DNA from: an uncultured Fibrobacterota bacterium
Lineage (GTDB): Bacteria > Fibrobacterota > OXYB2-FULL-49-7 > JAEUSG01
DNA length: 64,000 nucleotides
NCBI GenBank assembly: GCA_964590225.1
Contig: CAZPWS010000011.1
Location: 4,136 to 68,135 of the forward strand
Reading direction: 5' to 3'
Part shown: positions 1 to 30,283 of the stretch, piece after piece
Numbering within the stretch: position 1 is the first letter of the stretch
How the letters are laid out: each line of letters opens with the position of its first letter
The notes under the pieces: generated by a model
The model's database searches: none
What the model was told of the DNA's origin: nothing
Seen by the model: the letters and a program-made list of their open reading frames with translations, nothing else
Program-made: the position numbers and the translations under genes

Positions 1-189
1 CGCCAGTTTTTTTGCCGATTCGTTAAGCTCCTTTGCTCTTTTGACGGGCGAAACAAAGGTATCAATAAAAAATTCTGCCATCTGGACAGTGCCTTTGGTT
101 TTCAGCTCTACAATTGCCTGAATACCGCCAACCGAGAATAGCAGAAGACAGAAAAAAATAATAAAGACAATTTGATTTTTTTTACTCAT
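1..189 (-). CDS. Partial CDS (N-terminal 63 aa; runs off the window start). It is a membrane-anchored protein directly downstream of the MBOAT gene and may be its periplasmic partner.
   Basis: The reverse complement of 1-189 translates to MSKKNQIVFIIFFCLLLFSVGGIQAIVELKTKG..., a single N-terminal TM helix. The ATG is 7 nt after the MBOAT stop, so the two are probably co-operonic. Confidence 0.45.
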   Translation of the reverse strand, partial: MSKKNQIVFIIFFCLLLFSVGGIQAIVELKTKGTVQMAEFFIDTFVSPVKRAKELNESAKKLA

Positions 190-196
190 AATCTTC

Positions 197-1621
197 TCAA
201 AATTGAAAGTAGAGGAACGGACTGAATGTCTGTGTGAACATCATTATTATGGTTAGTGCAAAAACAGCCACAAGTAAAACAAGTTTGGATACCGAAAGTT
301 TTTCAACCCAATGGTGCGCCTGTACGGGCATCCATGTGAAAATTGAACAAACCACAATAGTTATGATGTTCTGAAGTGTAAAGAGATTCGCCTCAAGCAT
401 AGCTGAAGCTGGAGCAAGCTCTTTTAGTCCAAGCATAAACCCCCAATAATCCCAGGCCTGTCCTAACGAAGGAGCGCGGAACAGCACCCATCCGAAAAGA
501 ACCAGTATTTGTGCAAACACCAGTTGGCCCCATGCTGGCAGAATGGCATAAAAGGGCTTTTTGCCCGAAAGCCGCTCAATCAAAAGCCATGCCCCCTGAT
601 AAATTCCCCACATAAGAAAGTGCATCTGGTTACCATGCCACAAACCACAAAGGAAAAGGGTAACCACCAAGTTGAAATAGGTCCGTGCAACACCTTTCCT
701 GTTGCCGCCAAGCGGTATGTAGAGATAGTCCTTTATCCAGGTTGAGAGCGAAATATGCCATCTACGCCAAAATTCAGTAATTGATTTCGAGTTATAGGGC
801 GAGTCGAAGTTTTTAATAAATTCAAAACCGAACATCCGCCCAAGCCCAACTGCCATATCGGAATAACCGCAAAAATCAAAATAAATCTGGAAACTATAGC
901 CCAGTATTCCAAACCATGCCGTAAACACCCCCGGGGTGTCTGCACCAAATGCGGTGTCGGCAATAACCGCCGCAGAATCAGCTAAAAGAAGCTTCTTTGC
1001 AAGTCCAAGAACAAAGAGGGCCATGCCTCTTGTAAACATCTCTACTGAATGTTTTCGGTGGACAAGCGCATCCGCAACTGTTTGATAACGGATAATTGGG
1101 CCGGCAATCAGCTGCGGAAACATTGCAACAAAACAGGAAAAAGAGGCCATATCCTTGATTGGACGGGCATCACCGCGCCACACATCGATAGTGTAGCTCA
1201 TTGTCTGAAAGGTGTAAAACGAAATTCCCGCGGGCAGAAAAATTTGCATTACCGGCAGCATGGCACCATCAGCACCAAGAAGCATGGCAAGCTTATTTAC
1301 GCTGTCCGCAAAAAAGCCGGCATACTTAAAAAAACCAAGCATACTTAGATTGCCAACCATCGAAAAGGTCAAAAACAGATTTCTTCTGAACTTTGTAGCC
1401 CCCTCTATAGTTATGTTTTTGCCGCATGTGTAGTCGAGGAGGGTTGAAATCCACATCAATGACACATACCAAGGATTAAGCCAACCGTAAAATATGTAGC
1501 TGACTACGGTAAGGAAAAAGTTGGGGATGCTAATATTAACCCTTGAAGCTACTAAGGCATAGTACAGGACAAGGGTAAGCGGCAGAAAATAGAACAAAAA
1601 GATTTGCGAACTAAAAACCAT
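197..1621 (-). CDS. MBOAT-family membrane-bound O-acyltransferase (AlgI/DltB-like)
   Basis: 474 aa polytopic membrane protein. The conserved MBOAT His region is present (WRRWHISLSTWIKDYLYIPLGGNRKG), and the overall profile matches AlgI/DltB/PatA. Confidence 0.85.
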   Translation of the reverse strand: MVFSSQIFLFYFLPLTLVLYYALVASRVNISIPNFFLTVVSYIFYGWLNPWYVSLMWISTLLDYTCGKNITIEGATKFRRNLFLTFSMVGNLSMLGFFKYAGFFADSVNKLAMLLGADGAMLPVMQIFLPAGISFYTFQTMSYTIDVWRGDARPIKDMASFSCFVAMFPQLIAGPIIRYQTVADALVHRKHSVEMFTRGMALFVLGLAKKLLLADSAAVIADTAFGADTPGVFTAWFGILGYSFQIYFDFCGYSDMAVGLGRMFGFEFIKNFDSPYNSKSITEFWRRWHISLSTWIKDYLYIPLGGNRKGVARTYFNLVVTLFLCGLWHGNQMHFLMWGIYQGAWLLIERLSGKKPFYAILPAWGQLVFAQILVLFGWVLFRAPSLGQAWDYWGFMLGLKELAPASAMLEANLFTLQNIITIVVCSIFTWMPVQAHHWVEKLSVSKLVLLVAVFALTIIMMFTQTFSPFLYFQF

Positions 1622-1651
1622 TTGTAGAATTGCTCCTGAAAAATTAGTGGG

Positions 1652-2125
1652 TTATTTCACAATGTCGGCTTTAAGTGAATAATACTTTGCCAATTCAGAA
1701 TCAAAATATTCGTCTTCAACGGCATCGTTCCAGACAAGAGAGATTGGTTCGATAAGGGTAAGTTTATGTAGCTGCCCTTCTTCAAATTTTGCTACTGTTC
1801 CAATGGTAAGCTTCGCCATTGCATCCTTAACTTGGCCCCTTGCAATTCTCGGATTATAATGGCCTACAAGAAGATCTTTACCAGCATAATTGCCGCTCAA
1901 CACTTTAACAATACGATATTTCATTATATAAACATAATTGTACAGGTCGTTTGGGGCAAATTTACCAGGTATTTCAACAAGTCGAGCTTCAACTACCAAG
2001 GTGTCAACTTTTTTTGCGGTAGCTTTGTTAACTTTCTTAGCTGGTTCCGCTGCATAAGAGGCCAAAAAAAGTAGCGAAAAGATAAATACAAGAGAAATTT
2101 TATTGACCATTCCAACCCCTTTCAT
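1652..2125 (-). CDS. Exported hypothetical protein (157 aa) upstream of the MBOAT gene
   Basis: N-terminal signal peptide (LVFIFSLLFLASYAAEP). No motif I recognise. Confidence 0.55.
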   Translation of the reverse strand: MKGVGMVNKISLVFIFSLLFLASYAAEPAKKVNKATAKKVDTLVVEARLVEIPGKFAPNDLYNYVYIMKYRIVKVLSGNYAGKDLLVGHYNPRIARGQVKDAMAKLTIGTVAKFEEGQLHKLTLIEPISLVWNDAVEDEYFDSELAKYYSLKADIVK

Positions 2126-2204
2126 GAGAAAATCTAAGATTCCACTAAAAATTAATCCAAACTAATACGATTAACAATAATTAATTCACATACCATAATC
2201 AATA

Positions 2205-3203
2205 CTAACGGCCACCATTTTTCTGCACTACTACCGTAAAACCATTACCAACTTTATCATCAATATCCTGCACTTCAACTATATTGAAATTCAAATACTT
2301 AACAACCTCTACAAGATCCTCAGTTATCCAGATGTTATGATGTCCATAATCGGTACTCTTAAAATCGGTTTCAAACCTCTTTATAAGTTCTTCAAGAGTG
2401 GTTCGCGGTAAATCTTTATCGAACATCCTCTCCTTATGAGGGACAAGCAGAAATAGAAATCCACCTGGCCTTATAACTCTGTGCCATTCCAAAAGACCTT
2501 TAATGGGGTTAGCTATATGTTCAAGGACATGGGAAGTAACAATAAAGTCCCATGAATTATCGGTAAAAGGAAGCTTTTCACCAAAAGCAACAATATCAAC
2601 CGGCATATAGTCACCGCATGTTCTGATTTCATCAAGTTTATAAACGGTCATAGCTGGCGTATAGTCGATGTTTAGCGTATTTAACCCAAACGCATTACTG
2701 GCAGAGCCGCCTATTTCAATGCCACGCAAACCATCCAGATACTTGTGGGCAAGCACACTTTCTCGCACACGGCCAGCAATTGGCCACTTTATAGTATTGT
2801 CAAGTATAGCCGCTATCGCTTCCGGCAATTTCTCGACCTGTTGGGAAAGCAAGGCCTGTGCCAATAGAACCTGCAAATCTTTATCTGAAGGGTTAGCGTC
2901 CAGAGCTTTTCTAATTAGAGGTATCATCTCCCATATTGAGCCAAAAGAACGGGCAACTTCGGATAAATTTACTACAATATCCGGATTTTTCTGATCGAGT
3001 ATATGGGCGTGCAGCAATATCGCAAATGATTCGCTCTTCATGCCAAGATAGTAGTTAATCAAACCCATGCACTGATAAGTTGCTGCCGTGTTCCCGAATT
3101 TAATCCGAGCCTCCTTAACGGCATCCATAGCAGAGCGAAACTCTCTTTTCTGTATGTGGCTATTTGCGAGATCGATTAAGCCTGCAAGTTCATCGTTCTG
3201 CAT
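2205..3203 (-). CDS. TPR-like N-terminus fused to a class I SAM-dependent methyltransferase
   Basis: Methyltransf_11-type motifs (LEIGGSASNAFG ... SWDFIVTSHVLEH ... RVIRPGGFLFLLVP), with a helical repeat region at the N-terminus. Confidence 0.7.
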   Translation of the reverse strand: MQNDELAGLIDLANSHIQKREFRSAMDAVKEARIKFGNTAATYQCMGLINYYLGMKSESFAILLHAHILDQKNPDIVVNLSEVARSFGSIWEMIPLIRKALDANPSDKDLQVLLAQALLSQQVEKLPEAIAAILDNTIKWPIAGRVRESVLAHKYLDGLRGIEIGGSASNAFGLNTLNIDYTPAMTVYKLDEIRTCGDYMPVDIVAFGEKLPFTDNSWDFIVTSHVLEHIANPIKGLLEWHRVIRPGGFLFLLVPHKERMFDKDLPRTTLEELIKRFETDFKSTDYGHHNIWITEDLVEVVKYLNFNIVEVQDIDDKVGNGFTVVVQKNGGR

Positions 3204-3218
3204 AACACATGTCCCCTA

Positions 3219-3839
3219 CTAAGTTAGTGATTTTCGATACTCATTCATGCGCTTGCCATGATGGATAAACTCCCGCAGCAAAACAAAGCCGGCAGAACGG
3301 TAAAAAGCGTTCGATTTATTGTCAAGTGCGCTTGTAACGACTTTATACTCTTTTATACCGCCCTTTTCTTTAAAAAAGCTGTCAAGCCTGCCTACTAATT
3401 TTTTGCCGAGTCCCCTGCCATGCATTTCTGGTGTAACCGCTACCGACAATAATTCCGCATCGATTCCCTTACATTGAAATGTATTTGTTGAGGGCTTTGG
3501 AGAATGCGATACAAAAGGATAAGCCACTGTTTCGATAATTTTCTTAAGCGTTACAATAGAAAACAGCTTACTACTGATAGCAATAATAAAAGAAAATCCA
3601 TACCGTCGTAAGGCATACCTATAAAAGCGAGGAAGAGAAAGAGTACCAGCCAGAAAAGCAACAACAGAACTGCCAGCGTCCCGTTCTAAAAAAAGCACAC
3701 TATCTTTGTGCGAGTCAACCGATTCATACAGTTTCGATAAAAAACCTACCCCAAGCGAGGAAAGAAATCCTTCGGGAATACCCTCGATATGAAGTTCCGC
3801 AACCCGCCTGTAATCTTTTTTTTCAACCATTTTTTGCAA
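3219..3839 (-). CDS. GNAT-family N-acetyltransferase
   Basis: Acetyl-CoA binding motif HGRGLGKKLV and a GNAT-like C-terminus. Confidence 0.7.
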   Translation of the reverse strand: MQKMVEKKDYRRVAELHIEGIPEGFLSSLGVGFLSKLYESVDSHKDSVLFLERDAGSSVVAFLAGTLSLPRFYRYALRRYGFSFIIAISSKLFSIVTLKKIIETVAYPFVSHSPKPSTNTFQCKGIDAELLSVAVTPEMHGRGLGKKLVGRLDSFFKEKGGIKEYKVVTSALDNKSNAFYRSAGFVLLREFIHHGKRMNEYRKSLT

Positions 3840-3854
3840 GTATAAATTTGGCTC

Positions 3855-5069
3855 TTATAGGGGCAGAATTTTATTGTATTCATTAACCTCAACAGCCGTC
3901 CACGGAAGACCATACTTGTTAAGGTCGTCCATAAAAGGATCGGGGTCAAACTCTTCCATATTAAAAACCCCCTTGCCGCGCCATTTATTTTCCAAAATCA
4001 TTTTAGCGCCTATCATTGCTGGAACGCCAGTTGTGTAAGAAACAGCCTGAGCCTTCGTTTCACGGTAACATTCGGCGTGGTCGCAAACATTGTAGATGTA
4101 CCAGACCTTTTCTATGCCATCTTTTTTGCCCTTTATTAGACAGCCAATATTTGTTTTACCGGTGTAGTTCTTGCCAAGCGAACCAGGATCGGGCAAGAGC
4201 GCTTTAAGAAATTTTATTGGCACTATCTTTTTTCCCTCAAACTCAACAGGATCGATTCTGGTCATACCAATATTCTGCAATACTTTAAGGTGTGTGAGAT
4301 AGTTTTCTCCAAAGGTCATCCAGAAACGGATTCGTTTAAGACCTGGCAGGTTTTTTGCAAGAGATTCAAGCTCCTCATGATACAAAAGAAAGCTGTTTTT
4401 ATGGCCAATTTCGGGGTAATTATAATGAAAATTTAGCGACATAGGAGGAATTTCTATCCATTTTCCATTCTCCCAATACTTGCCCTTCTGGGTTATTTCC
4501 CTTATGTTAATTTCCGGGTTAAAGTTTGTGGCAAATGGATGACCGTGGTCACCTGCATTACAATCAAGAATATCAACAAAATTAATTTCATCGAAATAAT
4601 GTTTAAGTGCATAAGCACAAAAAACATTAGTTACTCCCGGATCGAAACCGGATCCAAGAAGAGCCATAATACCTTTGGTTTTATACTTCGATTTGTATGC
4701 CCATTGCCATTTATACTCGAATTTGGCTTTTGTTGGCGGTTCATAATTGGCAGTATCTAAATAGTCAACACCTGTTGCCAGACAAGCATCCATTATTGGC
4801 AGATCCTGATACGGCAGAGCAATATTTAACACCAACTTTGGCTTATGCTTTTTTATAAGGGCTATAACCTGCTTAACATTATCGGCATTGACCTTATCGG
4901 TTTTTATAGTTCTCTTTGTTGCACTCTTTACATCTTTGGCGATTTGCTTACACTTAGACTCCGTGCGGCTTGCAAGAACAATTTCAGAAAATACTTCCGG
5001 CAATTGAGCGCATTTGTGCGCAACTACATTTCCCACTCCACCAGCCCCGATAATCAGTACCTTTGCCAT
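3855..5069 (-). CDS. Saccharopine dehydrogenase-family oxidoreductase, possibly carboxynorspermidine/carboxyspermidine dehydrogenase
   Basis: Rossmann start MAKVLIIGAGGVGNVVAHKC. The 404 aa length fits the Sacchrp_dh N+C architecture typical of CANSDH. Confidence 0.65.
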   Translation of the reverse strand: MAKVLIIGAGGVGNVVAHKCAQLPEVFSEIVLASRTESKCKQIAKDVKSATKRTIKTDKVNADNVKQVIALIKKHKPKLVLNIALPYQDLPIMDACLATGVDYLDTANYEPPTKAKFEYKWQWAYKSKYKTKGIMALLGSGFDPGVTNVFCAYALKHYFDEINFVDILDCNAGDHGHPFATNFNPEINIREITQKGKYWENGKWIEIPPMSLNFHYNYPEIGHKNSFLLYHEELESLAKNLPGLKRIRFWMTFGENYLTHLKVLQNIGMTRIDPVEFEGKKIVPIKFLKALLPDPGSLGKNYTGKTNIGCLIKGKKDGIEKVWYIYNVCDHAECYRETKAQAVSYTTGVPAMIGAKMILENKWRGKGVFNMEEFDPDPFMDDLNKYGLPWTAVEVNEYNKILPL

Positions 5070-5087
5070 TTTTTGCCCCCTTATGTT

Positions 5088-7946
5088 CTATACAAAAAGT
5101 TTTATTTCGACCCGCTCTTTACCCTCAAGAGAGAATATTTCCGTCTGGTTATCTCCACTCTCTTTCCCCCTCTTTGGAGCCACTGTCACGGTAAGAGCTA
5201 TTTTGTCGTACAAACCCTTACTGTTTTTGCGGTGTATAATGCGCTTGAATACCATCTCTTTTTTTAATTCCGAAGGAAGTATGGGGGCTATTTCAATGTC
5301 CGGTTTATCCGGGTCATGTAGATTAAGTGAAACTCCGGCGATTTTCTGGAAAATTTCTACAATCCAGTCAACCGATCCAGAAAGGCCAAAATACATTCCT
5401 TTCCCATAGTGTGGGTCATCCCTGTCAGATACATATGATGTGCTTGGAGTTTCAAACGGACCACATAGAGACTCATCGCGTAGGGCAGACATCATCGGTT
5501 TAAACTGCTTCCACACAGTATCCACCTCACCGGCAATAGATAACCTATACCTGTGCATCATTACCTGACAGTGGTGATACTCACCATTTTCTGCGGTACC
5601 GACAGGCAGCACCCCCATCCTTCCGGCAAGCTCAATAGAGCGCTGGTTATTTGCGATAGGTTTTGTGAACATCACAAGTCCAAGTTTTTCATCAAAAAAC
5701 AGCTTGTCGGTTGTTCGTAATACCTTTGAAATTATTTCACCGCCATTGTTTACTTCCGGCAACCAATCCCGTTTGGTGTTAATCATCTCGATGCAATATG
5801 CCTGACAATTAAGCTCTCTTCTGTTTATGCTATCAAAGTCTCTATTTTTGAGAGAGCCAAGTGTATAACCTGTTTCACCATTTTTGTAATTTGGCACAGA
5901 CCCATCAAGGTGGAACTCATGGATACAATTGAGGAAGCCGGAGTTAAAAGAGTCCGGACCATCTTCGTATGCCCATTTAATAATATTGGTTCGTAGTGCT
6001 GCTGCAAAATTTTTCAAAACTGAAAGGTCAACAAATAATGAATTATTTCGTAAGGAATCAGCAATATGCCTACTTTCAAGAACATCCACAACCTCAACAA
6101 TAGTCAAAAACAGATGAGCAGAAAGCCTTGTTTGTACTCCCCTACCCTTTCCCCTTGTTGACGCATCTCCTACAACCGAAGTTCCAAACATATCAATGGG
6201 ATCACACCAGTCGCCGTAAAGAATTTGCGCCATACCATACGGCGAATCGTCTGCATGCCGCTTAAAGCAAAGTAAAACTTCTTCTATTACTTTCACAATG
6301 GGCAATACCCTCTCACCGCCGATAATCCCTGATACTTCGGGTTTTTCAGGATTTGTTAATTTTATGGTGCCAACGGATTCAAATAGTATATCGGTATCTC
6401 CCGTTTCCTTGATATACATACAAAGAGAGTTTAACAACCATAATGGGCTATCGGTATAGGGTCTGTTATCGTTTTTAATCTCGATGGTGCGATTGTTCCA
6501 TGAGCTCGGATATTGCCGGGGGAACATTCCATGCAGCTTTTCTTTGAGTGTAAGCGGTCGCTCGTCTTTTTTTGGAAAGGAGTCTGTCGTCTGATAGGTA
6601 AACCCAAGTGCGTAAACAAGGTCGTCTCTAACGCGGCCGGGATCCTCCTTCATTTTAGGCCACATATCCTGCCCCCGATCCCGTGTCCCAAGTTCAATAC
6701 CATCAGCCAATTTAGCGCCATGCGCACGACAATTTTCGTACAGCTCCTTTACGCCAGTCCAGACTGAATTAGCATACTCCGATACCGCTTTTTCCGCTGG
6801 CAATTGTAGTTCAAAGGGGGGAAAATAGTTTTCCGCTTTATCTTTTTTTGCAGCTTTTATATTGTAAACTTCTGAATTAATATTCGTTACCTTGAGAAGA
6901 GAACCTGTTGCTTTTCTAAAACTCTTTTCCATCGCACTAAAAGTAGGTTCAGTATGACCAGCTTCCATTCGGTATTTCTCGTTGATTGCATTGTTGTCGA
7001 TATAAAGTAAATACTGCTGTAAATCTGCACTTTTTTTAGGCGCAAGAGAAAAAGAAAATCCCGATGCACCTATCGCAGCAGTAGCAAACCTATTAATTCG
7101 CGTACCCGCACCCCCCTTTACCATTTCCCCCTTTAACACAGAGGCTGGCAAAAGCACCGAAATAGAAGTATCGCCAACAAAGGTAGAATAATCGCTTGTA
7201 GAAGCTATATGGGTAAGATTATTGTATTCACTATGAAGCCTCTTTATTTGCACAATCTCACTATATGGAACCCGTGCAGTCATTATAATATCTTTTTCCG
7301 TAACAGGCGCTCCACAGTCGTACCAGATTTCTTTATTGTACACAAATTTCTGTGTACCATGCAGTGACGAGTAGGACCAAAGTTGGCCGTTAATTTTCGT
7401 ACTTCCTCTGTTAAATATCGCCGCTGACCTTACAATAGCCGGTCCCTTTGAGGTGTACACAAGCGACAGTTTAACAGCCGTCTCAAATGTAGAATTAAAG
7501 ATTTTAAAGGCTGAACAGTACCACATTGCCCTTTCAGGATCGCCAACCTTTACTATCTTTGTTGAAATAGGAATACAACCGAAATTAATAGCAGGATTCA
7601 TAAGAGAAACAATTTTTAGCTCTTTCCCACGGTTTAATCGCAGCCAAAGATTGGTGGATGGAACTCCAACCTCCCGTTTTTCAACCGGATCAAAATGGGA
7701 ATCAAGCACCTTAACATCCATGCCATCTTTCAGCTTAACAGTGAACCCGACACTGCCATTAGACATGAAAGTAGCGGTCGCATTTAGTATATTGTCAACA
7801 ATAACGGATGGACACCCTGATGGATGCGCATTGTATATTACCTCGCTTGCAGGACCATACCCGCCGAGACGATTAACCCTGTGGACAACCTTAAGTGAAA
7901 GAATTCTGTTTGCCTCAGCTAAGAATCCATTTTGTTTGTCTGCCAT
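5088..7946 (-). CDS. Large (952 aa) glycoside hydrolase/phosphorylase-like protein, probably six-hairpin GH94/GH36-like. I cannot assign the family by eye.
   Basis: Long uninterrupted ORF with Trp/aromatic-rich segments typical of (alpha/alpha)6 glycosidase or phosphorylase cores. Translationally coupled to the IMPase gene. Confidence 0.45.
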   Translation of the reverse strand: MADKQNGFLAEANRILSLKVVHRVNRLGGYGPASEVIYNAHPSGCPSVIVDNILNATATFMSNGSVGFTVKLKDGMDVKVLDSHFDPVEKREVGVPSTNLWLRLNRGKELKIVSLMNPAINFGCIPISTKIVKVGDPERAMWYCSAFKIFNSTFETAVKLSLVYTSKGPAIVRSAAIFNRGSTKINGQLWSYSSLHGTQKFVYNKEIWYDCGAPVTEKDIIMTARVPYSEIVQIKRLHSEYNNLTHIASTSDYSTFVGDTSISVLLPASVLKGEMVKGGAGTRINRFATAAIGASGFSFSLAPKKSADLQQYLLYIDNNAINEKYRMEAGHTEPTFSAMEKSFRKATGSLLKVTNINSEVYNIKAAKKDKAENYFPPFELQLPAEKAVSEYANSVWTGVKELYENCRAHGAKLADGIELGTRDRGQDMWPKMKEDPGRVRDDLVYALGFTYQTTDSFPKKDERPLTLKEKLHGMFPRQYPSSWNNRTIEIKNDNRPYTDSPLWLLNSLCMYIKETGDTDILFESVGTIKLTNPEKPEVSGIIGGERVLPIVKVIEEVLLCFKRHADDSPYGMAQILYGDWCDPIDMFGTSVVGDASTRGKGRGVQTRLSAHLFLTIVEVVDVLESRHIADSLRNNSLFVDLSVLKNFAAALRTNIIKWAYEDGPDSFNSGFLNCIHEFHLDGSVPNYKNGETGYTLGSLKNRDFDSINRRELNCQAYCIEMINTKRDWLPEVNNGGEIISKVLRTTDKLFFDEKLGLVMFTKPIANNQRSIELAGRMGVLPVGTAENGEYHHCQVMMHRYRLSIAGEVDTVWKQFKPMMSALRDESLCGPFETPSTSYVSDRDDPHYGKGMYFGLSGSVDWIVEIFQKIAGVSLNLHDPDKPDIEIAPILPSELKKEMVFKRIIHRKNSKGLYDKIALTVTVAPKRGKESGDNQTEIFSLEGKERVEIKLFV

Positions 7947-8747
7947 TTATGCACCCTTATTAAATCCTGAAGTTAACGCAATAAACCGTTCCTGAAGTTT
8001 GTAGTTAGTCGCAAGAAAGGTCTCTCTATAAAGATTATCGTTGGCACCAAAAAAATCGCCACAAAAACCGCCCGCCTCTTTTACAATAAGCTGCCCAGCT
8101 GCAACATCCCACGGTTTAAGCTGGAGCTCGTAAAAGGCTTCTGCCCGTCCGCAAGCAACAGAGACAAGATCGAGTGCTGCCGAACCTTCGCGCCTGTGGT
8201 CGCTCACCGCATTTTGAACACGCCCATACAAGGAGGCAAAAGCATTAACAATGTCACTATTCTGACGAAATGGCGTTCCAAATAAAACCAGTGCGTTTCG
8301 CAAATCCGCAGTTTCAGAGACTATAATTTTCTTGCCATCAAGAAAAGCCCCTTTGCCATTAAGCGCCGTGAATAGTTCATTGTGCATCACATCCATTACA
8401 AGGGCAGCAGAAAGAACCCCTTTTATTTCCGCAGCAATCGATACAGAGAAGCGGTGATGCATACGAAGGTAGTTAGTTGTTCCGTCAAGCGGATCGATTA
8501 TCCATCGCACATCTCCGCATCCATTTTGTTCAGCCATGCCTTCTTCAGTTAAAAAAGTGTGATCTGTAAATTGGCTGAGGATGGTATTTACAATGGCTTT
8601 TTCGGCCTCTTTATCAACAAAAGAGACGAAGTCATTTTTCGCCTTTATCTCGATCTGAGTCTGATCAACCTTTCCATAATGCTTTAGCAGCACAACCCTT
8701 GCTGCTAAAGCGGCTTGTTCCGCAACTTTTAGTAAATCGTCATTCAT
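7947..8747 (-). CDS. Inositol monophosphatase-family protein (SuhB/IMPase)
   Basis: IMPase signature motifs WIIDPLDGTTNY and the metal-binding region. 266 aa. Confidence 0.8.
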   Translation of the reverse strand: MNDDLLKVAEQAALAARVVLLKHYGKVDQTQIEIKAKNDFVSFVDKEAEKAIVNTILSQFTDHTFLTEEGMAEQNGCGDVRWIIDPLDGTTNYLRMHHRFSVSIAAEIKGVLSAALVMDVMHNELFTALNGKGAFLDGKKIIVSETADLRNALVLFGTPFRQNSDIVNAFASLYGRVQNAVSDHRREGSAALDLVSVACGRAEAFYELQLKPWDVAAGQLIVKEAGGFCGDFFGANDNLYRETFLATNYKLQERFIALTSGFNKGA

Positions 8748-8765
8748 TTATTATGGTTCCATGCT

Positions 8766-9884
8766 TTATGCTACGGAATATTTTGAAGCGACATCATTAA
8801 TTGCTTTTTTATAAACCTTTTGCGCCTGTCTATACCAGAACTCATACTGCCCAGCACCAGCCTGCTTGCCTGGATCAGCACCCGCTTTTCTAAACGCATC
8901 GATCAAGTTAAGCAACTGTGGCTGTTTACCTCTGCACACTTCCACAACAAGAAGGTAGTAGTACGACTGCCAAATTCTATCCGGTATATCTTGAGGGGGG
9001 AAACGGATACAGTCTTTAAAACTCATTTCCGCTTTTTCAAGCAACTCGCTATCTTTTTTAGCGCCATTCATAAAATTATAAACAAGAAAATGGGCAAGTC
9101 CGACCTCATAAAAACGGTTTATACCTCTATCAAAGGAGGTTGCAGTAATGCAATCGGCACATAACCGATAAGCGTAATCGAGATGTTCCCTATCCGCAAA
9201 AAAAGAAAGATAATCCCCCTGTTCAACGCCGATTTTTGCAAGCATATCCTTTCTTCTGTTTGTGCTTTTTATAAGTAGCGTCCGTGCATCTGATGAATAT
9301 ATAGGCGGAAATTCCTGTCCTTCAGAGTGACAAATGAAATCTTCCTTATAAAACGATGTCAAAAGACATTCGCTGCACATTATAAGGGTATCACGATAAA
9401 AATCGATCTCTTCGTCTGTTGTACTATTTACAGCTACGGGCAGAAGCGAATGTTCTTTCCAAATAAACTTGATGGCTTGCTGGTTTAGAAATTCACTTGG
9501 GAAATCGGTATTATGACACACTGGACACTCAATAGTTGCATTAACCCAGTGAGTCCCCTTTCTTACACTGCCATAAACGGAAGCGCCAGCATCTCCATCA
9601 ACTAAGGAAATATTTGGCAAAACCCTGCAAAATTGTTCGGCAAGTTCAGCCGAACCACAAAGAATAGAAAACGAAACGCCCTGCTTTTCCAGAGTATTAT
9701 ACACATTGTTAATTAGTTTAAAGCCAACGCTATCAACACTCTTTACTCTCGACAGGTCAAGCAATACAGAGTTTCCAGAACGGACATCAGATAGCATCGT
9801 TGTAAAGAACGATTTTACCTGAACAAGATTTTTTAAATCAAATGAAAATTCTGGTCTGAGTGTTTTAAACTTTTTTGTATCCAT
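8766..9884 (-). CDS. STAS (anti-sigma-factor antagonist-like) domain fused to a DUF2225-like zinc-ribbon/helical domain
   Basis: The N-terminal ~110 aa has a STAS profile (LLDLSRVKSVDSVGFKLINNVYNTLEKQGVSFSILCGS). This is followed by CPVCHNTDF ... MCSECLLTSF, matching the Cys4 ribbon plus helical tail of DUF2225. Confidence 0.55.
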   Translation of the reverse strand: MDTKKFKTLRPEFSFDLKNLVQVKSFFTTMLSDVRSGNSVLLDLSRVKSVDSVGFKLINNVYNTLEKQGVSFSILCGSAELAEQFCRVLPNISLVDGDAGASVYGSVRKGTHWVNATIECPVCHNTDFPSEFLNQQAIKFIWKEHSLLPVAVNSTTDEEIDFYRDTLIMCSECLLTSFYKEDFICHSEGQEFPPIYSSDARTLLIKSTNRRKDMLAKIGVEQGDYLSFFADREHLDYAYRLCADCITATSFDRGINRFYEVGLAHFLVYNFMNGAKKDSELLEKAEMSFKDCIRFPPQDIPDRIWQSYYYLLVVEVCRGKQPQLLNLIDAFRKAGADPGKQAGAGQYEFWYRQAQKVYKKAINDVASKYSVA

Positions 9885-9944
9885 ATACTCTTTGGTAATT
9901 TCTTAACAACAGGACGAGTAAAATATAAGTGATGTATTTTACAT

Positions 9945-10943
9945 TCACCAAGACAAATGGTTGTATCCGCTGCGAGCCAAATCCACCAAACCCATTGTTC
10001 CTGTTTGCAATAGTTTAACAGAAGGCCTGTTTGATTTTTTCTTCACAACACCAATCCTGAAACATTCACAACATGGTTTCCAGTCTGGAGAGGCGGTAAA
10101 CAGTAGTTCGTATTCCTCACCGCTTTTTAAAGCGAGAGAAAGGGAGGATTCACCAATTAATTGTGCAACTTTTTTTAGTTCGCCCTCACAACCAATTTTT
10201 TCTGCCTCCACCTCAATTTGTACTCCTGACGACTCGGCAATATGCCATAATTCGGAGGAGAGGCCATCGCTTATGTCGATCATAGCGTGAACCTTCTTTT
10301 CTCTTCCAAGCAGCTCTCCTTTTAAGCAGGGCAAAGGCATGATGTGTTTTTTTATGGCATTTTTTGCTGCTCTTGTTCTGAATTTTACCTGCTTATTATC
10401 CTCCTTCATAAGTAGGCGAAGACCTGATTCCGACATTCCGACGCTACCAGTTAAATAAACGATATCGCCTGCCTTCGCCATCGACCGCATTTTAAGTGAA
10501 GAGCGGTCAACCACCCCACACACAGTTATAGTCGCCGAAAAATGGTCAGACGGGGACCTAACTGTATCTCCCCCTGCCACCACAGCTCCACATAAATCGG
10601 AGATATATTTCATACCCTTATAGAATTTGAGAATTTCCCTTTCGGCCAATCCAAACGGAACGGATATTGCCGAAAACAAGTAGTCACCACCGCCCCCCAT
10701 CGCATACATATCACTAATGGCTCCACTTGCAGCTTTTATACCAGCCTCGTAAAAAGAGGACCACTTCCTTGTGAAATGGATTTCCTCCACAAAGGAATCT
10801 GTTGAGACAATTAATGCCTTTCTATTCGGCAAAGGAATAACTGCGGTATCATCGCCTATGCCCATATAATACATAGAATTACAACAAACACCTCTTGTAA
10901 GTAGTGAGGATATTTTTTTAATTAAACCAAATTCGTTTTTCAT
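9945..10943 (-). CDS. thiL: Thiamine-monophosphate kinase
   Basis: EFGLI start, GDDTAV motif, and an AIR-synthase-related N and C domain layout. 332 aa. Confidence 0.75.
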   Translation of the reverse strand: MKNEFGLIKKISSLLTRGVCCNSMYYMGIGDDTAVIPLPNRKALIVSTDSFVEEIHFTRKWSSFYEAGIKAASGAISDMYAMGGGGDYLFSAISVPFGLAEREILKFYKGMKYISDLCGAVVAGGDTVRSPSDHFSATITVCGVVDRSSLKMRSMAKAGDIVYLTGSVGMSESGLRLLMKEDNKQVKFRTRAAKNAIKKHIMPLPCLKGELLGREKKVHAMIDISDGLSSELWHIAESSGVQIEVEAEKIGCEGELKKVAQLIGESSLSLALKSGEEYELLFTASPDWKPCCECFRIGVVKKKSNRPSVKLLQTGTMGLVDLARSGYNHLSW

Positions 10944-11013
10944 ATAACTTTAACTTTTTCTTTAAGTGCTACCACTTATTAACCGATAGATTGAAGTAAA
11001 GGGGGGCATAGCT

Positions 11014-11181
11014 ATGGATTTAGGCGCAATAGCATTAAACAATTCTTCGGCAGCACAAAACGAGATATCAATAGCGCTTTTAAAAAAGGCGCAAGATATT
11101 TCAAAAACAGAGGCGTCCCAATTGATTGAGTCGGTAGCTGTCGCTTCGCCGAAAAACGGCAAGATCGATTTATTAGCATAA
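11014..11181 (+). CDS. Small (55 aa) YjfB-like putative motility-associated protein. It is below the 60 aa cutoff of the ORF track.
   Basis: Strong SD (AAAGGGGGG) 7 nt upstream of the ATG. The product MDLGAIALNNSSAAQNEISIALLKKAQDISKTEASQLIESVAVASPKNGKIDLLA resembles the YjfB family (MDIAAL...ISI..LK...D). Confidence 0.4.
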   Translation: MDLGAIALNNSSAAQNEISIALLKKAQDISKTEASQLIESVAVASPKNGKIDLLA

Positions 11182-11188
11182 TCTTTGT

Positions 11189-13483
11189 TTACCTCAGGTG
11201 AAAACGATAGGGCATGATGGCAAGCATGGAGCCGTCGCGCGCCATTTCTGTAACCGCCCCTAGAATTCTTCGCTTCACTTTGGCCTCGCCACCCGAAAGT
11301 TCCGCAAAAAACCCCCTCGGTTTAGGATATAAGTCTATTCCAATAGGTGCAGCTTCATCAAATCCCGCCCTAACTTTAGCACTGTTTATAGCCTCCGCAA
11401 GTCCCCCTATCTCGTCTATCAACCCCCTCGCTAATGCCTGCTCGCCACTAAATACCCTTCCCCTTCCAAGTACATTAGCGCTGTCCTTTGATATGTTACG
11501 CCCCTCAGCCACCCTGTTTAGGAACCCCGAGTAAAATTCCTCAAGCGAAGCCTGCATAGTGGTCACCTGTTCCTCTGAAAACTCTTTATAATCAGAAAAC
11601 AGATCAGCATTTCTGCCAAATGTAATTAACTCTTTTTTTATGCCAAATTTATCGTACAGCCCCTTTAGTACAAATTTCCCTGCAAAGACGCCTATACTAC
11701 CAATAACCGCCCCCTCACCTGCAAAAATGGCATCGGCTCCCGCCATAACGAAATATCCACCAGAAGCGGCAACATCTCCAACAGAGGCTACAACAGGCTT
11801 CCCACTCTCACGAAGCCTTTTAACTTCACGCCAAATCTGATCGGATGCAGAACCCGATCCCCCTGGGCTATTAACACGCAGCACGACGCCCTTCACCCGT
11901 TTATCTTTCCGAATTTTGGCAAGTATATCACAAATCGTACGGGAACCGACAAAGCTTTCTCCGGAGAAAAAATCGGTAAATGACTCACCATTGACTATTG
12001 TCCCTTCAATTACAACAATAGCAATTTTGCTACCTCCGCTCCACTCCCTTTTATAGTATGAGCGGTTACGCAAATTTACAGGCCGTTCCCTTTTCGGAGC
12101 CAATTCTTCGAAAATATCTCTATAATAACCGATTTCATTAATCAGCCCTATTGAGCAGGCCTCGGAAAGCGGTATTGACCCTCTGTCAAGTACAGCAGCA
12201 AAAGTATCTCTATCGACTCCCCTATCAGTTACAATGTTATCAATGAAATGGTTATACCACGAAGACAACAACATAATTTCATTTTCACGAAACTTGGCCG
12301 ACATCGAATCGTCGGTAAAGACTTCAGGATAGTTTTTATACTCTCCCACCCTTAGAAAATTAGCTTTAACTCCAAGCTTATCAAAAAGTCCCTTATAAAA
12401 CGAAACTTCCGCGCCAATGCCAGTCATAACCCAGGGTGATAACGGTTCAACTATTATTCTGTCCGCAGCAGCAGCAAGGTAGTACGAACTTGGTTCAACA
12501 CTTTCAAGACAGGCCGTTATCCGTTTGTTTACAAGCCTTAAATCTTTTATGGCACTGCGGATTTCGTCAAGCATGCCAAAACCGGCTCTAATTTGGCCTA
12601 TTCTTAGGATTATTTGTCCAATGTCCTCATCTCTCGCGCCATTTCTGAGCTGAATTAAAATATCGCTAAGCCTTTGCGCGCCTCCTCCAAACAGCGAAAA
12701 ATCGGATGCCCCATCTGTTAACACTCCACTAATTTCAATTACTGCCACTTTACGCGGTCCGTTAACAACAGGTTCTTTGCGGTCCTTGCCCATCCATAAC
12801 GCAATGGAACCATTTTTACCAGCACCATCAAGTGGATGCGAATAGCCAAATTCAGAGTTGGATAGAGAGAAAGAAAGAGCAGCATTCCATTTGTTATCGT
12901 CAGGGGAATAGGCCGCCTGAAGTGCCATACCATTTAAATCAAGGGCAAGTGTAATAGCCGTACCATTAAAAGCCGCATCAAGGTATTTTGATGATGCGCC
13001 TATTGTCACAATATTTACTGGTCTAACAGCAACACCGCATTGAAGGATATGGGCTCCTCCTGCACCAATCAATCCATCCGTTGTAATCCCAAGAGAAAGC
13101 CACTGAACTGGGCGGAACAGCGTTCCTATGTCAAATTGATAACTTGAATTGGAGACTAATCTGTTTTGAATAAAGCCAAGTCGTGTTCCAAAGGAAAGAG
13201 CTTTCGATGTACGATGCCCTGTACTGAAAAAGAATGCATCCGTCTCCTTTTCTCTTCTAAAGCCCATGCCCACCAGACCTGTAGCTATCGCGGCCTCAAT
13301 GAGAGAATCCTGCGCAAGAGAGGAATGTAGCGCTATATTGGCCCCTCTGCCTTCTGCGAGTCCGGCAGGGTTAACTATGACAGATAACGCATCGTCTCTA
13401 ATGGCCGGCGAATTATTTAAAACTGAGGACGAAATAATTGAAACGAACATCAACACAAAGAGCAGAATCTTCTTTTTACTCAT
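11189..13483 (-). CDS. sppA: Signal peptide peptidase SppA (protease IV, 67K type) with an extra N-terminal beta-rich domain
   Basis: Tandem ClpP/crotonase-fold halves with SppA motifs (VVLRVNSPGGSGSASD, catalytic Ser/Lys regions). 764 aa, with a signal peptide. Confidence 0.75.
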   Translation of the reverse strand: MSKKKILLFVLMFVSIISSSVLNNSPAIRDDALSVIVNPAGLAEGRGANIALHSSLAQDSLIEAAIATGLVGMGFRREKETDAFFFSTGHRTSKALSFGTRLGFIQNRLVSNSSYQFDIGTLFRPVQWLSLGITTDGLIGAGGAHILQCGVAVRPVNIVTIGASSKYLDAAFNGTAITLALDLNGMALQAAYSPDDNKWNAALSFSLSNSEFGYSHPLDGAGKNGSIALWMGKDRKEPVVNGPRKVAVIEISGVLTDGASDFSLFGGGAQRLSDILIQLRNGARDEDIGQIILRIGQIRAGFGMLDEIRSAIKDLRLVNKRITACLESVEPSSYYLAAAADRIIVEPLSPWVMTGIGAEVSFYKGLFDKLGVKANFLRVGEYKNYPEVFTDDSMSAKFRENEIMLLSSWYNHFIDNIVTDRGVDRDTFAAVLDRGSIPLSEACSIGLINEIGYYRDIFEELAPKRERPVNLRNRSYYKREWSGGSKIAIVVIEGTIVNGESFTDFFSGESFVGSRTICDILAKIRKDKRVKGVVLRVNSPGGSGSASDQIWREVKRLRESGKPVVASVGDVAASGGYFVMAGADAIFAGEGAVIGSIGVFAGKFVLKGLYDKFGIKKELITFGRNADLFSDYKEFSEEQVTTMQASLEEFYSGFLNRVAEGRNISKDSANVLGRGRVFSGEQALARGLIDEIGGLAEAINSAKVRAGFDEAAPIGIDLYPKPRGFFAELSGGEAKVKRRILGAVTEMARDGSMLAIMPYRFHLR

Positions 13484-13617
13484 TTAATTTCCTTTTCTAT
13501 GTAAAATACAAAATCAAGCTTTCCGTAAAATTCATTTTCTTTATCTTGCATATCGACCTGCAATACAGAAATATTTTGACTGCTTTTTTAAATTGCAGAA
13601 AATTTTAAGGAGGTTCC

Positions 13618-14082
13618 GTGCAAATATCAGAATTACTCACTGCTTCATCAATAGTGATACCTTTGCGCTCCACCGACAGAGATGGTATAATAGCTGAGCT
13701 GGTTAAAGCCGCCCCCTTCAGCAGAAGCCATATCAATGAAGAAACAGTCGTAAAGGCCGTCATTGAACGAGAAAATGTTACAAGTACCGGCATAGGAGAT
13801 GGCGTGGCCATTCCACATGCAAAATGTGATATAAAAGAAGAATTGTTAATGTCGGTTGGCGTGGCGGATAATCCAATAGAGTTCGCAGCAATCGACAATA
13901 AACCGGCCAGAATATTCTTCATGCTCTTGTCACGCAAGGATGTTTCCGGTCTGCACATTAAAATGCTCGCCAAGATTGCAAAGCTTGCAAGACTCGATAA
14001 TTTCAGGGAAGGTGTGCTTCTTTGTAAAAACGCAGCTGAACTACTTGAATTGTTCAGAAAAGAGGAAGCTGCTATTCTGTAA
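13618..14082 (+). CDS. ptsN: PTS EIIA type-2 domain protein (PtsN / EIIA-Ntr-like)
   Basis: GTG start with an AGGAGG SD. Conserved His region GIGDGVAIPHAK. 154 aa. Confidence 0.65.
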   Translation: MQISELLTASSIVIPLRSTDRDGIIAELVKAAPFSRSHINEETVVKAVIERENVTSTGIGDGVAIPHAKCDIKEELLMSVGVADNPIEFAAIDNKPARIFFMLLSRKDVSGLHIKMLAKIAKLARLDNFREGVLLCKNAAELLELFRKEEAAIL

Positions 14083-18805: not shown

Positions 18806-19135
18806 ATGGAAATAACACTATCTACCCATCACGCTTTCAGTGTGGTTGAAGTAAGCGGTCAGATTAACTCTCTTAAGGATTCAATACAACTGAAATCCAT
18901 CATAAATACACTTTTTGATGATGGAAAACGGAATATTGCAATTAAGCTGAAAGATGTTGAGTATGTCGATAGCGCAGCAATAAATGTGCTTATATATGCG
19001 AGAAACATTGCAGACAAACTTAAAGGCGAACTTGTTATTCTCGAACCCAACGAGTACATCCTAAACATGCTCTCAGTTGTTGGAATATCAAAAATTTTCA
19101 CCATTTGCGAGAATTTAGAAACGCTTAAACGGTAA
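18806..19135 (+). CDS. Stand-alone STAS-domain protein (anti-sigma-factor antagonist family)
   Basis: 109 aa. A SpoIIAA-like profile is visible in MEITLSTHHAFSVVEVSGQINSLKDS..., but with no nearby kinase or phosphatase. Confidence 0.7.
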   Translation: MEITLSTHHAFSVVEVSGQINSLKDSIQLKSIINTLFDDGKRNIAIKLKDVEYVDSAAINVLIYARNIADKLKGELVILEPNEYILNMLSVVGISKIFTICENLETLKR

Positions 19136-28327: not shown

Positions 28328-30283
28328 ATGGCACTATTTAGCACTATGCTGCCAAAGGCAGCCCTTTCCACTCTTGTTGACCGTTTTCCGGATGGCCTGG
28401 CGATTTTTCTGCACGAAAACAATACCCCCATTTATGTTAATGACGCTTTCGCAGCCTTACTATGCCTATCAAAAGAAGCACTTCTAAGCGGCGACGCAAG
28501 GCTCCCCTTTGCAATACCGCAAAATGGAACCCAGCATATCGATTTTAGAAGTCCACTTCGAAGCATAACTCTTGACTGTAAGGTTTTTAACATTAAGCAT
28601 GAAAACTTCAATTTTAGGGCTATCACCATAAGGGATGTTACGGATGTCGTTTACAAGGAAAACATGCTGAAGGAAAAAGAGGAAAGACTCAGACTTGCTT
28701 TTCAGGGTGCACAAAACGGAATATGGGACTGGGACTTACGAACCGGCAAAATGCATTTTTCGCCTGAGTGGAAGATTATGATAGGTTGCGCGGAAAACGA
28801 AGTTTCAGACCATCCGGATGCATGGTTTAAACGAGTTCATGACATGGATATGCCGGTTCTTCAAAATGCCATACAGGAGCATCTCCGCGGTAAAACACAG
28901 CATTTCAAGTGTCAATACAGAATTCTCCACAAAGATTTCTCCTATAAATGGATGCTTTGCAGTGGCGCCGCAATTAACGGACCCGATAACCGACCGGCAC
29001 GGCTTACAGGTGTCCAAGTTGATATTACCTCACAAAAAGAAAATGAAACAAGGCTCAAGGAAGCACTTGATGACTTGCAATTAGCACTCACATCCGAAAG
29101 GCTCCTGCTTCAAGAGCTTGATCGAAAAAACAAGGAATTAACTGAGCTGTCCATTACTGATGGTTTAACTAAACTTTACAATCATAGATTTCTTCAGGAA
29201 AGATTTGATTTTGAATTCGGTAAAGCAAGACGCTATGGTCAGGTACTATCATGCCTTTTAATAGATATTGACCATTTTAAAAACATAAACGATACATACG
29301 GCCACCAGTTCGGCGATTGCGTACTACGAGATTTATCGCGACTACTCAAAGAAAATTCCCGCGAATCGGATATTTGTGGAAGATATGGAGGCGAAGAGTT
29401 TATGGTTGTATCGTCAATATCTATTGACGACGCGCTGAAATTCGCGCAAAAACTTCACGATGCTGTAGCCTCTTACCCATTTTCTGACGGTACAACAACT
29501 ATTAAGGTTACAATAAGTATCGGCGTTACAGATTATAAAAACGATATAAAAACAAAGCAGGAAATGATTGAGCGGGCAGACAACGCTCTTTATCAAGCCA
29601 AGCACGAAGGGCGTAACACCGTGCGACAATGGAAGGAAAGAAATGACAACGACGACAAAACTATGGACCCCGATGCAATAGAAGGTTTGCGTAACAGTTT
29701 TAACAACCTGACTGAAAAAATGCGTACAACCTACATAGAGTCAACAAACGCACTGGTTAATGCCATAGATGCGAAAGATCACTACACCATGGAACACTCG
29801 CAAAATGTCGCCAATTATGCTGTCGCTCTTGCGAAAGAAATTCACTTGCCAGATAAAACTATCGAGACCATAAAGAACGCCGCCCTACTGCATGATGTTG
29901 GTAAAATTGGAATAGCACAGGAAATACTTCTTAAAAACGGACCTCTTACAAAGGAAGAATTTGAAGTAATGAAACGGCATCCTGTAATTGGTGTCAATAT
30001 TCTTAAAGATGTAAAATTCCTTGAGAAGGAGTTGCCAATTATCCTGCACCATCACGAAAGATTTGATGGAAAAGGATATCCACACGGTCTCAAAGCGTAC
30101 GAAATACCTCTGGGGGCAAGAATTCTCGCTGTGGTGGATGCTTACGACGCAATGACTACAGACAGGCCATACCGAAAAGCGTTATCAAATGAAATTGCTA
30201 TTGAGGAGCTTAGGAAAGGGGCTGGCACCCAGTTTTCAGAAGAGCTAATTGATGCTTTCATAAGAATTATCCGAACTTCATAA
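28328..30283 (+). CDS. PAS-GGDEF-HD-GYP composite c-di-GMP turnover protein
   Basis: PAS-like region (WDWDLRTGKMHFSPEWK), intact GGDEF A-site (RYGGEEFMVV), and an HD-GYP domain (HSQNVANYAVALA ... LLHDVGKIG ... HHERFDGKGYP). Confidence 0.85.
   Translation: MALFSTMLPKAALSTLVDRFPDGLAIFLHENNTPIYVNDAFAALLCLSKEALLSGDARLPFAIPQNGTQHIDFRSPLRSITLDCKVFNIKHENFNFRAITIRDVTDVVYKENMLKEKEERLRLAFQGAQNGIWDWDLRTGKMHFSPEWKIMIGCAENEVSDHPDAWFKRVHDMDMPVLQNAIQEHLRGKTQHFKCQYRILHKDFSYKWMLCSGAAINGPDNRPARLTGVQVDITSQKENETRLKEALDDLQLALTSERLLLQELDRKNKELTELSITDGLTKLYNHRFLQERFDFEFGKARRYGQVLSCLLIDIDHFKNINDTYGHQFGDCVLRDLSRLLKENSRESDICGRYGGEEFMVVSSISIDDALKFAQKLHDAVASYPFSDGTTTIKVTISIGVTDYKNDIKTKQEMIERADNALYQAKHEGRNTVRQWKERNDNDDKTMDPDAIEGLRNSFNNLTEKMRTTYIESTNALVNAIDAKDHYTMEHSQNVANYAVALAKEIHLPDKTIETIKNAALLHDVGKIGIAQEILLKNGPLTKEEFEVMKRHPVIGVNILKDVKFLEKELPIILHHHERFDGKGYPHGLKAYEIPLGARILAVVDAYDAMTTDRPYRKALSNEIAIEELRKGAGTQFSEELIDAFIRIIRTS

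Follow-up and report, generated by a model that had tools for sequence, protein, structure and literature searches.

A conserved family of STAS-DUF2225 fusion proteins, found mainly in Fibrobacterota, with a possible phospho-regulated output

The gene considered here lies on a contig of an uncultured Fibrobacterota bacterium (CAZPWS010000011.1), of which a stretch of 64,000 nucleotides, referred to below as the window, was analysed. It occupies positions 8766 to 9884 on the minus strand, is complete with an ATG start and encodes a protein of 372 amino acids, in which an N-terminal STAS domain is fused to a module assigned by profile comparison to a divergent DUF2225 subfamily. The STAS domain (residues 1–103; 9576 to 9884) is followed by an inter-domain linker (about residues 104–111; 9552 to 9575), a putative zinc-ribbon sub-domain (residues 112–196; 9297 to 9551) that is beta-rich and acidic, with an isoelectric point of 4.4, and a basic, helical, TPR-like alpha-solenoid with an isoelectric point of 8.8 (residues 197–372; 8769 to 9296), all on the minus strand. 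The initial annotation, made from the DNA letters, had described a C-terminal ribbon with CPVC and CSEC motifs followed by a helical domain of about 200 amino acids. The ribbon was found as described and the helical character was confirmed, whereas the size was revised to about 175 amino acids (residues 197–370), with the ribbon forming a separate unit at residues 112–196. The protein was predicted to be cytoplasmic because neither a signal peptide nor a hydrophobic segment was found, the longest hydrophobic run being four residues.

The same protein, identical, was found on six independent public contigs. Full-length orthologues with 35–53% identity were also found in conserved synteny, the shared order being an SppA peptidase gene, a small yjfB-like open reading frame (ORF) on the opposite strand, thiL, the STAS-DUF2225 gene and an inositol-monophosphatase-family gene. 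The occurrence of such orthologues in the same gene order indicates a genuine conserved gene, neither a chance ORF nor an assembly fusion. A horizontal-transfer origin was considered and rejected, since the gene and the window have similar GC contents (39.8% and 41.9%, respectively) and the synteny is conserved. In the high-confidence structural model (predicted local distance difference test (pLDDT) 92.1, predicted template modelling score 0.80) the linker is short and flexible. It is the lowest-confidence segment in both models, with pLDDT values of 28 (model 1) and 59 (model 2) for the block of residues 101–110, and its length varies across the alignment of close homologues. As modelled, such a linker is compatible with a defined arrangement of the STAS and DUF2225 parts.

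The distribution of the fusion was determined by an exhaustive hidden Markov model (HMM) search, in which a six-sequence alignment was run against 1.84 billion representatives with a threshold of E ≤ 1e-3. A total of 86 proteins was found, most of them 360–400 amino acids long and aligned end to end, and more than 50 further clusters of that length displayed the same architecture from end to end. A word-indexed search of 5.8 billion clusters returned six close relatives, and a profile search for related loci with a six-sequence alignment returned two loci from Fibrobacterota metagenome-assembled genomes (MAGs). The fusion, which the initial annotation had left to be sought in other taxa, is a conserved family, with about 86 clusters at 50% identity, mainly from Fibrobacterota. 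Among the minority of members that carry a taxon label, the named ones are all Fibrobacterota, Fibrobacteria, Fibrobacteres or Chitinivibrionales MAGs, with one exception labelled Elusimicrobia. The relatives are publicly annotated, by automatic labels, as 'STAS domain-containing protein', 'anti-anti-sigma factor' or 'hypothetical protein'.

When 74 of the 86 hits were aligned and sorted by their N-terminal module, 58 were found to carry STAS, seven a response-regulator receiver (REC) domain (P0065, P0073, P0078, P0079, P0080, P0083 and P0090) and nine a short or truncated N-terminus. Six of these nine are Pfam-typical stand-alone DUF2225 proteins with a helical N-terminal extension of about 65 amino acids. 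The Pfam STAS model was matched by 57 of the 74 members (best E = 8e-19), and the REC assignments were obtained with Pfam Response_reg (best E = 4e-27) together with phmmer, using CheY as a query. Most REC versions were found, when their sequences were read by eye, to retain the acidic pocket and the phospho-acceptor aspartate. No receiver domain was found in the window protein, which gave no Pfam match to Response_reg. A neighbour-joining tree built from the DUF2225 region alone, and without support values, resolved the stand-alone proteins and the REC proteins as sister clades, apart from several STAS clades, with the window protein placed in a small clade together with P0003, P0007, P0009, P0010 and P0011. 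The occurrence of DUF2225 alone, behind REC and behind STAS suggests that it is a shared output domain with swappable inputs.

The STAS assignment of the N-terminal part, also made in the initial annotation, was supported by Pfam (PF01740) at 28.6 bits, above the gathering cut-off of 22.6, with E = 1.3e-6 over residues 24–85. The predicted fold is SpoIIAA-like, with a central beta-sheet and four helices, and not a different alpha/beta fold; strands were predicted at residues 6–9, 39–44, 72–76 and 93–95 and helices at residues 17–33, 52–67, 79–88 and 97–103. The NCBIfam model TIGR00377 (anti-sigma factor antagonist) was matched with E = 1.6e-5 at 24.8 bits, under its curated cut-off of 53.45, and this match is a sequence resemblance at the superfamily level only. 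The best PDB sequences for the profile of six homologues were the Thermotoga antagonists TM1081 and TM1442, and the structural matches for the STAS part included RsbR and YtvA.

The candidate phospho-acceptor is Ser52 (codon AGC, 9729 to 9731, minus strand), which lies in the loop V-D-S-V-G at the start of helix 2. In the HMM alignment to the PDB chains of TM1442 and TM1081, it occupies the column of TM1442 Ser59, the phosphorylation site of that protein. Ser52 also corresponds to SpoIIAA Ser58 and RsbV Ser56, with which it was aligned by MAFFT using the Bacillus sequences, an alignment with which that to the PDB chains agrees. The serine is kept in all five full-length close homologues, and a D-S/T pair was found at the acceptor position in 44 of the 58 STAS-type members (76%), the family consensus being DSSG. 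This conservation favours control by phosphorylation, as far as sequence can indicate it, and lends no specific support to the sensing of anions or ligands.

The DUF2225 module was found to be the more strongly conserved half of the protein. The first CxxC knuckle of the ribbon, C120-P-V-C123 (9516 to 9527, minus strand), is present in the wide alignment in 73/74 and 74/74 sequences for its two cysteines, and the second, C170-S-E-C173 (9366 to 9377, minus strand), in 74/74 for both, the latter being followed by the motif L-x-[ST]-S-x4-D-F. All four cysteines are invariant in the six close homologues. Other conserved positions of the module are F183 and R211 (74/74 each), L241 (72/74), P149 (71/74), W350 (69/74) and S177 (62/74). 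The alignment of 74 sequences contains five invariant columns, every one of them in the DUF2225 module and none in STAS.

The resemblance to DUF2225 proposed in the initial annotation was borne out by profile comparison, although not by the Pfam model itself. With the single sequence, PF09986 yielded 7.2 bits and E = 4.9 over the ribbon only, short of the gathering score of 21, which taken literally is the lack of a significant hit; the best value over the six close homologues was E = 0.16. By contrast, hhalign of the six-sequence family against six Pfam-positive DUF2225 proteins gave a probability of 98.2% and E = 5.8e-14 over 253 columns, pairing residues 103–361 of the window protein with 52–317 of the DUF2225 set. 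The family HMM also retrieved the Pfam-positive proteins P0062, P0068, P0072, P0081, P0087 and P0061 at E = 3e-9 to 4e-4; their PF09986 scores are 52–72 bits, and the first three, retrieved at E = 3e-9 to 1.5e-7, score 71–72 bits. DUF2225 was matched at E ≤ 0.01 by 22 of the 74 family members. The cysteines C120/C123 and C170/C173 align with C68/C71 and C117/C120 of the stand-alone protein P0062, and the region of the second knuckle aligns with C-P-R-C-L-F-A-S-P-D-K-K-D-F of stand-alone DUF2225 proteins. The knuckles are separated by about 46 residues, as in DUF2225 ribbons, and the TPR-like helical repeats of this family were found at the C-terminus. By profile evidence, the C-terminal part is a divergent DUF2225 subfamily beyond the reach of the current Pfam model.

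The Cys4 ribbon is probably structural, with putative zinc binding. In structure comparisons the solenoid resembled the peptide- and protein-binding TPR regulators NprR and Rap, and the modelled shape of ribbon plus solenoid is typical of protein-binding domains. A specific solved relative of ribbon and solenoid was sought and none was retained, as the matches were to generic helical repeats only, and the PDB sequence profile search returned STAS chains only, with nothing for the DUF2225 part. Further single-sequence matches, to zf-C6H2/MYND (E = 0.003), glutaminase, MlaB, DUF1368, Lar_restr_allev and RING fingers, were all below their cut-offs and were discarded; they arise from the CxxC knuckles or from the STAS fold.

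The neighbourhood was characterised from 54 ORFs defined in the window, 18 of which were run through Pfam; Pfam labels were available for another three, and the rest, housekeeping genes, were recognised by eye from their translations. The window is mostly housekeeping in content, with a nusA-infB-rbfA-truB-rpsO-pnp cluster, tRNA synthetase genes, topA and glycosidase genes. The inositol-monophosphatase-family gene (7947 to 8747, minus strand; Pfam Inositol_P, 200 bits) lies 18 bp downstream of the fusion gene, and this adjacency is kept in the orthologous locus with 53% identity (L005). Judging from this spacing and the retained adjacency, the two genes are probably co-transcribed. A protein of 952 amino acids (5088 to 7946, minus strand) showed a weak match to the catalytic domain of GH94, the cellobiose/chitobiose phosphorylase superfamily (29.1 bits, cut-off 27). 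Since its start codon directly adjoins the stop codon of the inositol-monophosphatase gene, it is probably transcribed together with that gene and STAS-DUF2225; in L005, no GH94-like gene was found next to the orthologue. Promoter and terminator scans of positions 4900 to 13700 returned 13 and 8 candidates against shuffled expectations of 16.7 and 8.7, respectively, and counts at or below expectation give no information on operon structure.

A second STAS protein, of 109 amino acids, is encoded at 18806 to 19135 on the plus strand. The initial annotation had called it canonical and orphaned, and both descriptions stand: the Pfam STAS model was matched over the full length with 43.9 bits, Ser56 occupies the acceptor column, and a LarA-like gene lies on one side and a gene for a 978-amino-acid PorV/Tricorn/PD40 protein on the other, with no kinase or phosphatase among the neighbours. 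Nothing functional was found to tie this small STAS protein to the fusion protein. The 978-amino-acid protein (19194 to 22130, plus strand), which is secreted, is encoded 58 bp downstream of the small STAS gene, and its relatives are labelled 'PorV/PorQ family' and contain Tricorn_N, Tricorn_2nd and PD40 domains. A link between STAS, DUF2225 and this protein was considered, as a stand-alone DUF2225 gene lies directly upstream of a homologue (E = 3e-50) in L013. It was rejected, since the homologues in L016, L017 and L018 lack a STAS or DUF2225 neighbour and the DUF2225 gene of L014 is followed by FliD, so that the pairing is probably a coincidence.

Second-messenger signalling genes are also present in the window, as shown by a PAS-GGDEF-HD-GYP (HD_5) protein of 651 amino acids (28328 to 30283, plus strand), a potential cyclic di-GMP synthase/phosphodiesterase. 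Proteins with cNMP_binding domains are encoded at 38391 to 38861 (plus strand) and 57748 to 58701 (minus strand), and the first of these genes overlaps by 14 bp the preceding gene for a multi-pass membrane HEAT-repeat protein of 907 amino acids (35681 to 38404).

The loci of other family members were compared with that of the window. In the main clade, an unannotated protein of 650–760 amino acids and a probable lipoprotein of 148–192 amino acids precede STAS-DUF2225, and neither has a counterpart in the window. The larger genes (652 and 760 amino acids; L010 7240 to 9198 and L019 4001 to 6283) share 33% identity (E = 5e-75) and show a weak match to the zinc-peptidase-like DUF5700. The lipoprotein genes (L008 8937 to 9503, L010 9195 to 9773 and L019 6280 to 6810) share about 21% identity (E about 1e-7); the possibility that they encode a hidden kinase or partner was dismissed, since the product is lipoprotein-like and secreted, has no Pfam match and is absent from the window. 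Across these loci, kinases were found only in L019/L020, one of the Hanks type about 5 kb upstream and, at the edge, a hybrid histidine kinase. There, positions 58 to 3607 encode a Hanks-type Ser/Thr kinase (583 amino acids) and a 'sensory hydrogenase' (576 amino acids) that resembles [FeFe]-hydrogenases and contains a PAS domain; these genes lie about 3.4–7 kb upstream of STAS-DUF2225 and were not found in the other loci. In L008/L009, a small STAS gene was found two genes upstream of STAS-DUF2225. The lpxK gene lies divergently upstream of stand-alone DUF2225 in both L013 and L014, and L013 also contains PilZ and DksA-type genes within 5 kb.

A link to motility was suggested by several observations. 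According to a 2025 preprint, inactivation of LEPBIa0550, a member of the DUF2225 family that is conserved in spiral-shaped spirochetes, lowered motility in Leptospira biflexa (PMC12236494). No other phenotype is known for a DUF2225 gene. Flagella have been inferred to be ancestral in Fibrobacterota (PMC4704652). In L014, a stand-alone DUF2225 gene (1940 to 2938) is immediately followed by FliD (3238 to 3990; FliD_N, 67 bits). In the window, the yjfB-like ORF (55 amino acids; 11014 to 11181, plus strand) scored 31.2 bits (cut-off 27) on YjfB_motility, 'putative motility protein'. It is flanked by SppA and thiL, runs in the opposite direction and is separated from the fusion gene by a single gene, and a copy with 40% identity occupies the same position in L006 (2453 to 2590), the locus with 35% identity. 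The FliD and YjfB adjacencies and the Leptospira knockout are hints and not functional evidence, and a link to motility is considered much less probable than the mechanism proposed next.

We infer, with a probability of about 0.45, that the fusion protein is a phospho-regulated STAS input controlling a DUF2225 output; the conjectural part of this model comprises phosphorylation as such, which module controls which, the binding of zinc, the identity of the partner and the connection to motility. STAS would be the regulatory input and the DUF2225 solenoid the effector, probably a protein-binding one. A serine kinase and a phosphatase whose genes lie at other sites in the genome would control the phosphorylation of Ser52, the state of which would alter either an intramolecular contact between STAS and DUF2225 or the binding of STAS to a partner. 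The altered contact or partner exchange would then gate what the solenoid binds. The REC-DUF2225 paralogues may do an equivalent job through an aspartyl-phosphate switch, the stand-alone DUF2225 proteins may represent the unregulated form, and flagellar motility may be the process acted upon. The replacement of STAS by REC in the sister proteins indicates a phospho-input role. The idea of STAS as an input for a DUF2225 output, already raised in the initial annotation, therefore receives indirect support from the occurrence of DUF2225 behind REC and alone, whereas the ligand- or anion-sensor aspect of that idea is not specifically supported.

Several observations weigh against this proposal. 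The predicted structure, which carries no inter-domain error estimate, does not establish a contact between STAS and DUF2225. The acceptor serine or threonine is absent in 14 of the 58 STAS-type relatives, so that phosphorylation cannot be universal in the STAS-DUF2225 family, and a conserved DSxG loop is also found in STAS domains that are not phosphorylated. Neither a HATPase_c kinase nor a PP2C/SpoIIE phosphatase was found among the 18 Pfam-scanned ORFs of the window. Likewise, RsbW/SpoIIAB kinases and PP2C/SpoIIE phosphatases were absent from about 7–10 kb around the genes in L007, L008/L009, L010/L011 and L019/L020, and from the short contig L006. The neighbourhoods differ by clade and are mostly housekeeping, with thiL and inositol monophosphatase in the window and the lipoprotein pair in the main clade, and hence the context names no partner. 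The support for a motility output consists of hints from one preprint on a distant stand-alone member and from anecdotal adjacencies.

The absence of an RsbW-type kinase and a PP2C phosphatase near the gene, as noted in the initial annotation, was found by Pfam, phmmer and tblastn to extend across the whole 64-kb window, with no matches to SpoIIAB or RsbW by phmmer among the 54 ORFs or by six-frame tblastn in the window DNA. Where possible, Pfam or PDB results support what was concluded with the SpoIIAB, RsbW, CheY, SpoIIAA and RsbV sequences as queries. A kinase or phosphatase neighbour is typical of partner-switching modules, not an absolute requirement.

The alternative that survives best, although it is rather unlikely, is that STAS serves as a constitutive docking module or binds a small ligand such as a nucleotide, an anion or a lipid, comparable to MlaB, SLC26/SulP, the YchM-ACP pair or the RsbR scaffold. 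It would then recruit the DUF2225 module to a complex or sense a metabolite. Against such a role stand the serine in its D-S-x-G/A context, which every close orthologue and 76% of the family retain, the best sequence matches, which were to the anti-sigma antagonists (TIGR00377, TM1081 and TM1442), and the swapping in of a phospho-accepting REC in the sister proteins.

Considerably less probable is a classical anti-sigma antagonist acting in a dispersed network, whereby STAS would sequester an RsbW-like kinase and free a sigma factor, with DUF2225 as an accessory for localisation or oligomerisation. The SpoIIAA/RsbV-like fold and serine are consistent with this, as is the automatic labelling of relatives as 'anti-anti-sigma factor', and the second orphan STAS of the window and the small STAS of L008/L009 would allow several STAS proteins to share one kinase. 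Nevertheless, no anti-sigma kinase, PP2C phosphatase or alternative sigma factor was found beside any member examined, and DUF2225 is more strongly conserved than STAS (five invariant columns versus none). Since it also occurs with REC or alone, DUF2225 looks like the functional core and not like an accessory. Finally, an artefact, by which adjacent genes were joined through a sequencing, assembly or frameshift error or the ORF arose by chance, can be given almost no credence; nothing was found in its favour, the low-confidence linker (residues 100–111) being the one weak point, and it is refuted by the identical protein on independent contigs, the syntenic full-length orthologues and the more than 50 clusters that align end to end.

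A broader proposal, which is improbable as it stands, is that DUF2225 is an unrecognised output of phospho-signalling, driven by STAS serine phosphate in Fibrobacterota and by REC aspartyl phosphate elsewhere, that binds a flagellar or chemotaxis component. The fusion would then be a fused partner switch coupling a kinase and a phosphatase to motility without a sigma factor.

What is new here is the STAS-DUF2225 architecture, its REC-DUF2225 sibling and the suggestion that DUF2225 acts as an output domain under regulation; the papers naming 'DUF2225' in the library searched mention none of them. An uncharacterised domain thereby gains a context, as its occurrence alone, behind a receiver and behind STAS is what marks an effector domain as regulated. 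Because the two parts are fused, the likely target of the STAS switch is named outright, whereas in several non-canonical partner-switching systems the target is unknown. The family occurs chiefly in Fibrobacterota, in which hardly any signal transduction has been characterised. Should the phospho-switch model be true, Ser52 and the DUF2225 solenoid would give direct access to what DUF2225 does.

Among known systems, the single-domain antagonists SpoIIAA, RsbV and TM1442 share with the window protein the STAS fold and an acceptor serine. They differ from it in that its STAS domain is the N-terminal quarter of 372 amino acids, the loop reads DSVG and not DSSG or DSTG, and neither a kinase, nor a PP2C phosphatase, nor a sigma factor was found near the fusion gene. 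The view of the initial annotation that STAS proteins of partner switches are normally small single-domain proteins is only partly true, since multidomain cases such as SLC26/SulP, RsbR and YtvA (LOV-STAS) are well known. Like the window protein, RsbR, YtvA and Anabaena All4160 couple STAS to an effector other than a sigma factor; in RsbR and YtvA, STAS is C-terminal and serves as output or scaffold, whereas in the window protein it is N-terminal. All4160 is a STAS-glycosyltransferase, a multidomain STAS protein with a non-sigma effector (PMC8256260), and partner-switch outputs other than sigma factors are established for SypA/SypE, HsbA and BtrV (PMC13555669, PMC6482189). With both multidomain STAS proteins and non-sigma outputs established, a STAS fusion as such is unsurprising.

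The stand-alone DUF2225 proteins, including the LEPBIa0550 family, possess the same Cys4 ribbon (CPxC ... CxxC-L/F-x-S/T-S-x4-DF) followed by TPR-like helices, and share R211, F183 and W350 with the window protein. The latter differs in having STAS in place of the helical extension of about 65 amino acids and in belonging to a separate clade, and the likeness to LEPBIa0550 is by family only. The REC-DUF2225 proteins (379–405 amino acids) follow the same plan of phospho-acceptor domain, linker, ribbon and solenoid, but their input is a CheY-like aspartate domain and in the DUF2225 part they cluster with the stand-alone proteins, away from the STAS-fused ones. By architecture the window protein is an analogue of response regulators, without being one of them. 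Both of its halves come from known families, so it is not a new kind of system; as an N-terminal STAS-effector fusion, it is a further case among the few STAS proteins with a non-sigma output.

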